64,000 nt of DNA from an uncultured Verrucomicrobiae bacterium (GTDB taxonomy: Bacteria; Verrucomicrobiota; Verrucomicrobiia; Chthoniobacterales; JAATET01): the NCBI GenBank assembly GCA_963719495.1, contig CAVRCI010000007.1, forward strand, positions 1 to 64,000, read 5' to 3'. This document shows, in pieces, positions 12,807 to 17,083 of this stretch (within the stretch, counting starts at the first letter, position 1; every line of letters begins with the position of its first letter). A program made the position numbers and the translations under genes. The notes below the pieces were generated by a model. That model was not told where the DNA came from, did not search any database, and saw only the letters and a program-made list of their open reading frames with translations.

Positions 12807-13541
12807 ATGCCCAAATCCCCCGCCCTCACCCCGGACCAGTGGTCGAAAAAAATCCTCACCACCACCCGCGAAGCGGGCCGCACCGGCCTCCCCGCCACCA
12901 AGCTCGGCACCGCCGCGCAGCGAAAGTCCCCGGCGTTCCAAGCCACCCTCGACGCCCTCCTCGCCAACGGCGACCTCATCGCCGCGACGAAAGGGAAGAC
13001 GACCCGCTACCACCACCGCGACGCCCCGCCGCCGACCCCGGCGGAGCTTTTCACCGCCGCCGCTCTCGCCAAGATCAACCCCGGCACGCTCTGGACCGAG
13101 ACCGCTCTCACCGGCGGCGGAGCCGCCGCCCCCGACCGCCGAGCCACGCTCCGCGCCCTTGCGAACGCGGGCCGACTCACCCGCGCCACGGTCCACACCT
13201 CCGCCCGCAAATCCGTCCCCGCCTACGGAGTCGCCCCGACCTCGCACCAATCCGAAATCCGAAATCCGAAATTCGAAATTCCCCCGCCCCCCTGGTCGAC
13301 CATCGAAGCCTCCGCCCGCGCCGCCGCCGCCGCCCGCGTCGACGGCGCCCCGTCCTTCGAAGAAGTCGCCCGTCGCGCCGCGACCACCCCGCTCGTCGTC
13401 CAGACCGCCGTCCTCCAAGCCCTCTCCCTCGGCACCCGTCTTCAGCTCGTCGCCGGGGATCCGCGCGAGGTGAGCGATCCCGCCACCGCCGCCCTTCACT
13501 ACGACGACCGCAAATTCTACCGTTTCCGCTTCGCCGAATGA
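12807..13541 (+). CDS. hypothetical protein, possibly multi-winged-helix DNA-binding
   Basis: 244 aa; repeated helix-(L..G.L)-strand pattern; ATGA overlap with the next gene at 13538-13541. Confidence 0.7.
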   Translation: MPKSPALTPDQWSKKILTTTREAGRTGLPATKLGTAAQRKSPAFQATLDALLANGDLIAATKGKTTRYHHRDAPPPTPAELFTAAALAKINPGTLWTETALTGGGAAAPDRRATLRALANAGRLTRATVHTSARKSVPAYGVAPTSHQSEIRNPKFEIPPPPWSTIEASARAAAAARVDGAPSFEEVARRAATTPLVVQTAVLQALSLGTRLQLVAGDPREVSDPATAALHYDDRKFYRFRFAE

Positions 13542-16500
13542 GTCCCAATCCCTACGCCAGCGTCATCCACCGCGACCCCGAAGTTCGCCCGCCCGCCTCG
13601 GTCTAGTCCTACCACGCCGAGTCGCTCGCCGCCATTCTCGCCCGCCTCCGCGCCGGCGTCACCACCCGCGACAACCTCAATCAGGCCAGCGTCCTCATTT
13701 CCACCGACCCGGGATTCGGAAAAACCCACCTCCTCGCCCGTCTCATCGAGTCCTCCCTCGCCTTCGCCCACTGCGTCTTCATTCCGCCCGTCAACGCCGG
13801 CCGCAACCTCGCCGGTGCCGTCCTCGACCGCATCGCCGCCCGACTGCGCCGCCCGGAGACCGCCGACGGCGGCGCGACCCGCTTCGACCGCCTTGTCTTC
13901 GAACTCATCGCCACCGCCTGCGAACCCGACACCGCCGCCGCCCGACCGTGGCGCGACTTCGACCTCGCCGGACTCCAGGCCGACTCGGTTCAGACCGAAC
14001 TCACCGCCCGCCGCCGCGAACTCGCCGACTTCCTCACCGCCCGCCTCCCCGATCTCACGGAACCCCTCAACGAGTCCGCCCACGCCTGGGCGCTCGCCCT
14101 GCTCGACAGCCTCACGACCGACCGGCTGCGCGAGACCCAGGCCGTGGATTGGATCAAGGGCCGCGTCCGCCAACTCCCCGACCTCGCGCCGCCGACCGCC
14201 GACGACGACGCCCCGCCCGAGGAGGAATGGACCCGCGCCGAGCACCGCCTCCACGATGCCGCCAACCTCTTCGCCGCCGCCGGACGTCCGCTCGCGCTCG
14301 TCTTCGACCAGGTCGAAAATTTCCGCAGTTTCGGCCCGGACGCCCTCCGCGCCTTCCTCAACCTCATCGAGCGCATCATGGCGGCCTCGCCCGCGACCCA
14401 GGTCGTCATCGCCGCCAACGCCGCCGATTGGAATCTCTTCCTCGACGACGCCGGGATCACCGAGCATTCCAGCCTCCGCGACCGCCTCCACGCCCCCCAC
14501 GTCCTGCGCGGCCTCACCTTCGCGGAAGCCCGGGAACTCCGCGATCTGCGGACCGCCCCCACCGAAACCGACCAAGCCCGCGCCCGCATCCCCGACGAAG
14601 CCATCGCGCGCCAACTCATGGTCGGACCCACCGGCGACGCCGCCATCTTCCTCTCCCCCCGCGCCTTCCTCCGCTGGTGCGCCCACCGCTGGGATCAGGT
14701 CCCCGACTCCCCCCAAGCCCCCCAAGCCCCCGACTCCCATCGGTCCGAGCCCGACTTCGAAACCGAGTGGGAAAAGGCCTGCCGGACCGTCGAGCGCGAG
14801 TCGTTCGGATTTTTCCCCGACTGGTTTCGCACGTTCATCCTCGAAGTCCTCGGCGGCACCGCCCGCACCATCAACGGCTACGAATTTCTCGACGACCCGT
14901 CCGGCCGCACCCACTTCGCCGAACCCAGCCTCAACTCCAACCGCTGGCAGGCCTGGACCCGCCGCGTTCGCGAAGTCGGCCTCGACCCCGGTCGCATCAC
15001 CGCGTTGCGCCCCTCCGAACGCCTGGCCGAAATCGAACGCGCCGCCTGGCACCCCGTGCCCCGCGACACGTGGCGGGCGGCCCATCCCCTCCGCGCCCTC
15101 CTCGCCGAAGGCGCGACCATTCGGGAGATCGACCCCGAGCCGATGCGCCTCATCGCCGCCGCCAGCCGCTTCCTCGACGCCGCCACCGATTTCGGCACCG
15201 ACCGCCCAACCGCCGCCCAATGGCTCCGCGAAAAACTCCCCGCCACCCCCCTCGATTTTTTTTTAGCCAAACCCGGTAAAATCAACGTCCCACCGACCAA
15301 ACCCAGTGGCATCGGCTTCCAGCCGATCACCAACCCACCGCGAAGCGCAATTCCCCCCTCCCACCCCATCACTGCGACCCCCCGCCACATCGTCCAGCTC
15401 AACGTCACCCACCTCGTCTACCTCCTCACCAATCCGGCCGCCACCCTGCCCGCCCGCCCGCACCTCCCGCCCCGCGAGCGCGGCGTTCTCTTCCACAGCC
15501 TCGCCAGCCGCTTCGTCCGCCACCTCCTCGCCGCGCCCTCCGCGCAGGCCGCGCCGCCCGAGCAGACCGACCCGCCCGCCCGCCTCGCCGCCTTCCTCGC
15601 CCGCGACCCGCTCTGGCAATCCTTCGCCCCCCACGACACCGCCGCCCCGCGCGTCGCCGACGCCCTCGCCGCGCTCGCCCGCCACGTCGCCACCCTCGGC
15701 GGAGCCGCCGCCGACTGGCGCGACCTCTACCTCGACACCGAACTCGACGTCCACCAGACGCTCGGCAGCTTCCACGGCATCACGATTCTCCTGAGCGGTC
15801 GCTGCGACGTCCTCCGCCGTCGCAGCCCCGGCGGCCCACCCGAGGTCGTCGATTACAAACTCGCCGCCACCCCCGACCACGCCGTCGAGAATCAGCTCCA
15901 ACTCGCCCTCTACGCCCGCCTCCTCGCCGACGCCCCCGAGCCGCTGCGCTGCGACGGCGTCCTCGAAATCTACTCCCCCGGATTGACCGAAGTCCGTTTC
16001 CCCCACGAATCCCTGCTCACCTTTTATAACGACCAGATCGTCCCAGTCCTCGACCGCCTCGCCCGCGAAGCCGCCACCAATCACCCCTCGCCGACCACCA
16101 TCCAACTCGACACCCACGACACTCACGGCACCACCGAACCCACGCCGCCGCTCCCCGCCCTCACCTCCGCCATTCCGCCCGCGATCACCGCCGCCTTCGA
16201 CGGCTTCGTCGGCAACTCCGCCATCGTCTCCCGCCTCCAGACCGCCCTCGCCGACAGCGCGCACGGCCACCTCCCGACCAACCTCCTCTTCACCGGACCC
16301 GGCGGCCTCGGAAAAAGTGAAATCGCCCGCCGCGTCGCCCGCGCTCTCGCCCTCCCGCTCGTCGAGATCCCCGGCAGCCGCGTTCGCTCAGTCGACGACC
16401 TGCTCGCTCTCGTCGACGCCACCCTCGAGGCCGCCGACCAATGCGCCACGACCGACGGCACCGACTCCGGCCTTCCACTCCTGCGCTACCCACCCGTCGT

Positions 16501-17083
16501 CATCTTCATCGACGAAGTCCACGAACTCCGCCGCCGCGCCGACGCGTTCCTCAACCTCTTCGAACCCCGCGAACGTCGCGCCGTCGGCAAAAAGGTCGTT
16601 GGCGATTTTGCCAACGCCACCCTGCTCGCCGCCACGACCGACGCCGGCCTTCTCCCCCGTCCCTTCCTCTCCCGCTTCCACCCATACGCGCTCGAACCCT
16701 ACTCCGCCGAAGAAGTCGCCGCAATGCTCACCGATCTCGGAGGCACGCCGACGTTCCGCGCTTCCCTCGCCCGCGTCGCCCGCCTGAACCCCCGCCTCGC
16801 CAAACTTCGCGCCGCCGAATTCCTCCAGCACCACCGCGTCCACGGCCACCCGCTCGACGAGCACGGTCTCGACGCCATGCGCAAGATCTGGCGCGCCGAC
16901 GCCGACGGACTCGAACCCCGCGACCACGCCTACCTCGCCGCCCTCGCCGACGGCCCCCGCGGCGTCCAAGCCCTCGCGGGCATCCTCCAACTTACGCCCG
17001 ACGAGATCACCCGCGACATCGAACCCCACCTCGTCCGCCTGGGAAAAATCACCACCTCCCGACAAGGCCGCCGCCTCGCGTAG
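13538..17083 (+). pseudogene. P-loop ATPase + PD-(D/E)xK nuclease + RuvB-like AAA+ fusion; one in-frame TAG at 13604-13606
   Basis: frame open 13607-17083; Walker A DPGFGKT (13706-13726), Walker B LVFDQVE; nuclease GVLFH/E/GRCD/VVDYK/QLALY; RuvB-like LLFTGPGGLGKS, IFIDEVH, AATT..LSRF, NPRLA and C-terminal wHTH IEPHLVRLG..SRQGR. Confidence 0.8.

Follow-up and report, generated by a model that had tools for sequence, protein, structure and literature searches.

A gene pair combining an Orc/Cdc6-like ATPase, a nuclease and an accessory RuvB motor: a candidate RuvB-powered variant of predicted HerA/FtsK capture systems

RuvB is seen as a dedicated Holliday-junction motor that is loaded and stimulated by RuvA. 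What, then, is a RuvB unit doing at the end of a nuclease, in the position of FtsK or HerA? The question is raised by a gene pair in a 64,000-nucleotide stretch of DNA from an uncultured Verrucomicrobiae bacterium (contig CAVRCI010000007.1; the window). A 244-amino-acid (aa) open reading frame, ORF1, is joined through an ATGA overlap to ORF2, of 1,181 codons, which combines an ATPase, a middle domain, a PD-(D/E)xK nuclease and a RuvB module (Table 1). The first-pass annotation of the window did not recognise this architecture and proposed a translocase-nuclease machine, acting against phages or plasmids or on branched DNA. We find it rather more probable than any other reading that ORF1-ORF2 is a RuvB-powered variant of a predicted capture system, a defence translocase-nuclease that would pump DNA past its nuclease.

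We found that all parts except the motor match an arrangement that is already predicted. Rakesh, Aravind and Krishnan (2024) proposed Orc/CDC6-coupled 'HerA/FtsK capture systems' by computational prediction (PMC10853773). According to the main text of that paper, the parts are an Orc/CDC6 ATPase, an inactive restriction endonuclease (iREase), an active restriction endonuclease (REase), HerA or FtsK, a domain of the winged helix-turn-helix (wHTH) type and often a partner with 2-4 wHTH domains; HerA or FtsK was taken from several sources, and fusions to DndH and DndE are listed too. ORF1-ORF2 shares the Orc/CDC6-type ATPase, a probable iREase after it, a predicted active REase, the slot for a DNA pump and the separate 2-4-wHTH gene. 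Fused or split arrangements and motors captured from several sources are likewise common to capture systems and the relatives of ORF2. The pump differs: it is HerA or FtsK in capture systems and an AAA+ RuvB derivative in ORF2, which departs from the definition in this one respect. Nor is there an apparent counterpart, in fused ORF2, of the C-terminal wHTH that the ATPase itself has in capture systems. 'Ruv' and 'Holliday' are absent from the main text of PMC10853773, and 'RuvB' is absent from that of a 2026 BREX paper (PMC12839542). We found no description of a RuvB version in the literature that we could search, to which supplements and most subscription papers did not belong. The chassis is therefore a described one, and RuvB in place of HerA/FtsK is the new element.

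We predict that the ORF2 ATPase belongs to the Orc/CDC6 family, judging by profile, motifs, Atlas neighbours and homology rather than by a tree. Its Walker A, Walker B and Arg residues were invariant in 10 sequences, clusters of AAA_16/AAA_22 and BrxC_BrxD are among its Atlas neighbours, and it is homologous to the ATPases of FtsK and HerA loci. The middle domain is probably an iREase. In the model its secondary structure runs helix, three strands, helix, strand, and in an alignment of 38 homologues it has a conserved Glu with no Lys after it; an hhalign comparison with the active nuclease was uninformative (probability 0.2). Helices then continue to residue 553, where a disordered linker takes over; wing strands are not seen, and the sole clear wHTH within ORF2 is that of RuvB. 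The nuclease matches PDDEXK_1 (E 4e-12). All four motifs searched for were present in 10/10 full-length RuvB-type proteins and, with its catalytic motifs kept, the ORF2 nuclease is predicted to be an active REase.

ORF1 appears to be a DNA-binding partner, as had been proposed at first pass. Its AlphaFold2 model (predicted local distance difference test, pLDDT, 81.7) contains three wHTH domains, and the proteins that its fold matches best, RPC34 and SelB among them, have wHTH domains singly or in tandem. An ORF1 homologue was found upstream in 13/17 close loci (loci used for the profile excluded). At L023 it lies immediately upstream of an intact RuvB-type gene (BLAST E 2e-21), and another homologue (P0163) is 57% identical to ORF1. 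BLAST matches to the partners at FtsK-type loci were weak (E 0.004), and this link rests on alignment and gene position. Near-identical partner proteins of FtsK-type loci carry the source name Methylacidiphilum, which points to Verrucomicrobiota. A complex prediction for ORF1 with the N-terminal 556 residues of ORF2 scored 0.00 and gave no verdict.

Table 1. Features of the ORF1-ORF2 locus, in window coordinates.
Feature	Position	Strand	Remark
ORF1, three tandem winged-helix domains, 244 aa	12807..13541	+	predicted DNA-recognition partner
ORF2, ATPase / probable inactive nuclease fold / nuclease / RuvB fusion, 1,181 codons	13538..17083	+	interrupted in assembly
In-frame TAG, ORF2 codon 23	13604..13606	+	nonsense mutation or base error
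Orc/Cdc6-STAND-like AAA+ ATPase	13607..14701	+	AAA_16 above cut-off
ATPase motifs	Walker A DPGFGKTH 13706; Walker B LVFDQVEN 14297; conserved Arg 14477-14488	+	
Alpha/beta domain, restriction-endonuclease-like strand order	14744..15265	+	secondary structure; 38-homologue alignment
PD-(D/E)xK nuclease, RecB/AddB/Cas4 type	15389..16081	+	GVLFH, E, GRCD, VVDYK, QLALY
Accessory-clade RuvB motor: ATPase, lid, wHTH	16175..17080	+	full RuvB fold
RuvB-module features	21-residue insert near 16448; shortened presensor-1 hairpin near 16559	+	
Two REP-like palindromic repeats, gatA-ORF1 gap	12706..12801	.	genome-wide, not system-specific
Genomic repeat in frame within ORF1 disordered loop	13247..13283	.	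52 genome matches
REP-like repeat in frame within ORF2 linker	15302..15337	.	67 genome matches

The RuvB module retains the RuvB fold and is altered in the hairpin that contacts RuvA. It has the same three-domain fold (AAA+ core, lid, wHTH) as the RuvB of RuvABC (PDB 1hqc, 7pbl; PMC9477746) and dominated whole-model fold searches of ORF2. It keeps Walker A and B, the sensor I Thr, the Arg finger, the sensor II Arg, the signature Glu and the last wing Arg; the Walker motifs were present in 11/11 RuvB-type proteins. The module scored below the equivalog cut-offs (71.8 versus 299 bits for TIGR00635; 77.5 versus 282), and the host genome's own ruvB scored 432. A 21-residue insert, predicted to form a hairpin, lengthens the interval from Walker A to Walker B to 62 residues, versus 41 in canonical RuvB. 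The spacing from Walker B to sensor I was 41 residues in 9/9 parsed rows (of 11), versus 48 in 20/20 canonical proteins. Six of the seven missing residues fall in the presensor-1 hairpin, which lacks the hydrophobic tip of canonical RuvB. We judged hairpin length by spacing; a sequence pattern for the hairpin also failed on canonical RuvB. As reported in the accessible part of PMC9477746, domain III of RuvA binds to this hairpin and stimulates the motor. ORF2 RuvB further differs from RuvABC RuvB in being fused behind a nuclease, in forming a separate clade and in having no linked ruvA or ruvC. The host has its own ruvA, ruvB and ruvC elsewhere, so the module is not the genome's only RuvB.

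We found that the fusion is real and conserved, as the first-pass annotation supposed. The full-length architecture is intact in nine homologues (P0003-6, P0009-12, P0014; 28-68% identity). Other proteins on the same N-terminal chassis end in FtsK (P0007, P0013, P0102, P0136, P0153; loci L158-L160, L163, L201, L203, L234), the more distant loci among them being fused or split. HerA occupies the position at L206, L236, L239 and L245, no motor is present at L197-L199, and at L200, L207 and L208 neither nuclease nor motor was detected with the ATPase. RuvB, FtsK and HerA thus share one slot behind the nuclease, as seen in sequence, model and trees. The FtsK-tailed P0007 and P0013 are 40-44% identical to the ORF2 protein (P0001) across the shared part.

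The trees indicate that motors were exchanged. On a careful tree of the ATPase and middle domain (21 rows, P0014 being a long branch), the motor label requires three changes, and monophyly of the ten RuvB rows was rejected (p-AU 0.006). In a quick nuclease-only tree (54 rows), the FtsK-bearing P0007 and P0013 are nested among RuvB-bearing rows (support 95 and 99). Because the trees are unrooted, they do not fix the direction of the swaps; the simplest reading is that FtsK or HerA was ancestral, RuvB replaced it, and FtsK was regained once or twice. Some FtsK-type copies are decaying: the FtsK domain is split at L160:8172-11805, and the nuclease is deleted at L161:8335-11328 and in P0015. Public sources annotate several of the RuvB-fused proteins as RuvB or RuvABC helicases.

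We found that the fused RuvB modules belong to an accessory clade that also ends other kinds of protein. In a careful 40-row tree they group together (100/99) and stand apart from canonical RuvBs, among them the host's own. A 163-row FastTree, built with only half of the long proteins and with neither partial modules nor proteins of other lengths, separates them likewise. The sister group consists of stand-alone RuvBs, one of which (L006) adjoins a tyrosine integrase, and some phage or phage-like copies fall within the accessory clade. Accessory RuvB also ends nuclease proteins of ~600 aa, DndE proteins, integrases (P0047, P0074) and 51 proteins of 1,500-1,970 aa. Five DndE-RuvB proteins have Pfam DndE matches.

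Some of the long proteins resemble DndH or SspH. P0045 matches PADLOC SspH (E 3e-64) in the portion before its accessory RuvB. At L165:9190-18881 (genome G013), a DndFGH/SspFGH-like operon begins with a DUF4338/DruA-SspF fusion (SspF/DptF-like, 1,218 aa) and a 453-aa gene, and its third gene (1,590 aa) ends in accessory RuvB, not in HerA/FtsK. When 31 long RuvB-tailed proteins were compared with PADLOC (best five families each), one matched SspH strongly and seven matched DndH/SspH weakly (E 5e-7 to 2e-3); one further protein is named DptH by its source. N-terminal BLAST linked 43/51 long proteins, with P0045 and L165 outside that group. The DndH-like N-terminus of L165 had no match in 301 genomes, in a search run without a positive control. 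The long proteins are only in part shown to be DndH, most of them matching it weakly or not at all.

Other members of the clade, or close to it, were also seen. The ~600-aa PD-(D/E)xK-RuvB family (P0016-P0030; L024:1422-3221) has a RuvB sister to that of ORF2 and a nuclease in a separate clade; the gene upstream at L024 has no Pfam match. DndE is fused to accessory RuvB in proteins of ~475 aa (P0039, P0043, P0062, P0150 and relatives), which mirror the DndE-HerA/FtsK fusions already published, and in two further proteins accessory RuvB is joined to an unannotated N-terminal domain (P0114) or to DUF835 (P0148). Non-canonical RuvBs stand beside tyrosine integrases at L006:9971-12469, which is flanked by helicase-nuclease genes, and, more distantly, at L164:9819-11832, which also borders a dndBCDE cluster. 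A scan of large viral contigs found RuvB-like genes at 26 loci (L102-L127), as RuvB-like modules only, a subset of them inside the accessory clade.

In HerA-NurA and AddAB/RecBCD, a motor feeds DNA to a nuclease. The ORF2 motor is of a different class, and ORF1-ORF2 has in addition a loader ATPase, a wHTH partner and a patchy distribution. The DndFGH/SspFGH systems are closer. The anti-phage activity of SspFGH, whose SspH is FtsK-like, has been tested (PMC8092258), and, as far as that paper and PMC10853773 were available, both types combine a triple-wHTH subunit with a nuclease that carries a C-terminal DNA pump; some DndH/SspH-like proteins bear the RuvB clade of ORF2. Unlike those systems, the ORF1-ORF2 locus lacks DndF/SspF, the DndH N-terminal domains and phosphorothioation genes, and its nuclease is RecB/Cas4-type. 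PADLOC matched neither DndF/SspF nor the N-terminal domains of DndH/SspH in ORF1 or ORF2. BREX-related capture (BRC) and BrxC/BrxD share an ORC/Cdc6 ATPase, a tripartite wHTH protein, a translocase and a nuclease effector with ORF1-ORF2 in the available text of PMC12839542. No PglZ, STAND, GNAT, TGT or methylase gene of BRC is present at ORF1-ORF2, where the translocase is RuvB.

Based on these comparisons we suggest how such a machine could work. The triple-wHTH protein and the Orc/Cdc6-like ATPase would pick out some site or structure of the invading DNA and load the machine, with another surface for DNA binding offered by the inactive nuclease fold. RuvB modules could form a ring around double-stranded DNA without RuvA, because the fused N-terminal part would supply the anchor. 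ATP-driven pumping by the ring would then feed DNA past the tethered nuclease for degradation. Such a machine would probably serve to defend the host against DNA from phages or plasmids. Of the two roles first proposed, the anti-invader role is supported as plausible, and the branched-DNA role is weakened by the shortened RuvA-binding hairpin and by FtsK in the same slot of relatives.

There is an even chance, in our judgement, that the clade has a wider use. It may be a RuvA-free, plug-in double-stranded DNA pump, kin to copies in integrative elements and phages, that was repeatedly swapped with HerA/FtsK across three or more types of system (Orc/CDC6-nuclease, DndH/SspH and DndE fusions). 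If so, 'motor capture' is not confined to one ATPase class, and RuvB by itself could act as a translocase on linear DNA. The natural RuvB/FtsK pairs on one chassis (P0001 versus P0007 and P0013) offer a ready comparison, bearing both on DNA pumping by the predicted capture systems and on RuvB as a stand-alone translocase. Gaps in annotation are flagged as well: RuvB-helicase labels on fused proteins, and weak or absent profile matches of most long DndH-like members. What makes the finding of interest is the exchange of motors across classes, together with the accessory clade, rather than the window copy, which is broken.

We found that the RuvB-type fusion is real but rare. No full-length match to ORF2 was found in 40 relatives, including five congeners. 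Of 401 sampled genomes of the class, 22 matched the ATPase part strongly (E < 1e-70; six of the 22 contributed to the profile), and a RuvB tail was observed in two of these (G000, G459), some others stopping at a contig edge. A genome-contig scan found one locus, a stand-alone RuvB, and a metagenome scan found nuclease-RuvB families at 3 of 80 loci, among the matches listed.

The site of insertion after gatA, noticed at first pass, proved to be variable. Here gatA and fabV are separated by window 12687-17855, which contains ORF1-ORF2 and a GyrI-like gene (17181-17807). The two genes are adjacent in 5/5 congeners (L259-L263), with gaps of about 0.4, 1.0, 1.1, 2.7 and 9.3 kb, none of which contains the ORF1-ORF2 module. 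The 9.3-kb gap is filled by a type I-C cas cluster and two others by metabolic genes. Across the genus the interval is nearly empty or holds Fe-ADH, PPK2, type I-C cas, or ORF1-ORF2 with the GyrI-like gene. These differences indicate a variable slot that is sometimes used for defence. At two related loci (L201:521-11693, L206:6981-16929), genes for wHTH, ATPase and nuclease-FtsK or nuclease-HerA lie directly upstream of type I-G cas operons.

Several observations weigh against a defence pump of this kind. The equivalents of Leu20/Arg21, Asp129 (replaced by Pro) and the wing Arg310, which the accessible text of PMC9477746 gives as important in canonical RuvB, were lost in 6/6 aligned fused proteins; pumping is therefore not guaranteed, and the motor may pump weakly or have its ATPase cycle controlled in another way. 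The Orc-type C-terminal wHTH that belongs to the published definition is missing from view in the fused form. The anti-invader role of capture systems is itself a prediction, with no tested member in the text seen of PMC10853773, and no PADLOC model fits ORF1 or the ORF2 ATPase. ATPase homologues were present in every genome sampled from one family (14/14), a pattern that looks more like vertical descent than mobility. At the locus, GC3 and C3 (codon bias) match the host. P0001 had no match in 72,556 plasmids and 50,697 phages, nor did an FtsK-type ATPase in the plasmids. In a scan covering some of the neighbours, cas genes adjoined only 2/23 close loci, and most relatives lie among housekeeping-looking genes. 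No methylase, phosphorothioation or other modification enzyme that could account for self/non-self discrimination is linked to the locus. Since most relatives sit among ordinary genes and codon bias is host-like, genomic context backs defence only moderately. We nevertheless retain a plausibly defensive translocase-nuclease as the inferred function.

An accessory role in DNA repair or recombination is unlikely, and is the rival that survives best. The pair could serve in end-resection, like HerA-NurA or AddAB, or in branch migration and resolution at forks or Holliday junctions. A RecB/AddB-type nuclease, a motor with the full RuvB fold, the 14/14 occurrence in one family and an FtsK-type locus (L159) near Ku and an ATP-dependent ligase all fit this view. 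However, the host already has ruvABC, with two PDDEXK_1 genes besides, the hairpin that would bind RuvA is shortened, and no full-length match was found among the 40 relatives; the repeated motor swaps and the decaying copies (the TAG in ORF2; L160; L161 and P0015) are unlike core repair genes.

It is quite improbable that ORF1 and the ATPase form a regulatory pair, a wHTH DNA binder and its loader, with the nuclease-motor part dispensable. Such a binder and loader have been proposed in cyanobacterial RcaD/RcaG: in the text available of PMC2799420, RcaD binds the cpc2 promoter and RcaG, a putative ATPase, may aid binding. The loci with neither nuclease nor motor detected would suit such a role, but the nuclease and Walker motifs kept throughout the RuvB-type proteins, and fusion in one chain, argue for a single machine.

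A selfish or mobile module, with a transposon-like ATPase, a target selector and a nuclease, is very improbable. Orc/CDC6 ATPases include those of Tn7 and Mu transposition (main text of PMC10853773), and the integrases beside the sister RuvBs at L006 and, more distantly, L164, or fused to two accessory RuvBs, would be consistent with mobility. Against this, the locus has no transposase, integrase or terminal inverted repeat, and the plasmid and phage searches found no match. An assembly chimera, or a chance fusion with a stray ruvB, is refuted as an explanation of the architecture, judging from the identical fusion in the nine other proteins and the separation of ORF2 RuvB from the host's ruvB, even though the TAG marks an imperfect copy or imperfect assembly and no contig from two public runs spans the nuclease-RuvB junction.

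The window copy of the candidate RuvB-powered capture system is probably inactive because of the TAG at codon 23, unless the TAG is an assembly error. The 22 ORF2 residues that precede it align with the N-termini of homologues, the two closest of which have Leu at its position, and the first canonical restart after it (GTG 14144) is beyond the ATPase Walker A. The TAG may have arisen by nonsense mutation not long ago, or it may be a base error; in two public runs, which held small shares of the window, codon 23 was absent. Read-through or recoding of TAG was rejected: no CUA-anticodon tRNA is reported, and TAG also terminates gatA and ORF2.

We looked for a sigma-70-like promoter at the locus and found none. 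The REP-like (repetitive extragenic palindromic) repeats before ORF1 (repeat pair D3) had 127 and 52 genome matches of at least 18 nt by blastn-short. Disordered loops of both ORF1 and ORF2 contain in-frame genome-wide repeats, and pLDDT is low at both (ORF1 residues 135-157; P0001 residues 560-592). Farther along, on the minus strand at window 19967-22110, are two adjacent genes whose products resemble SPFH/band-7 proteins.

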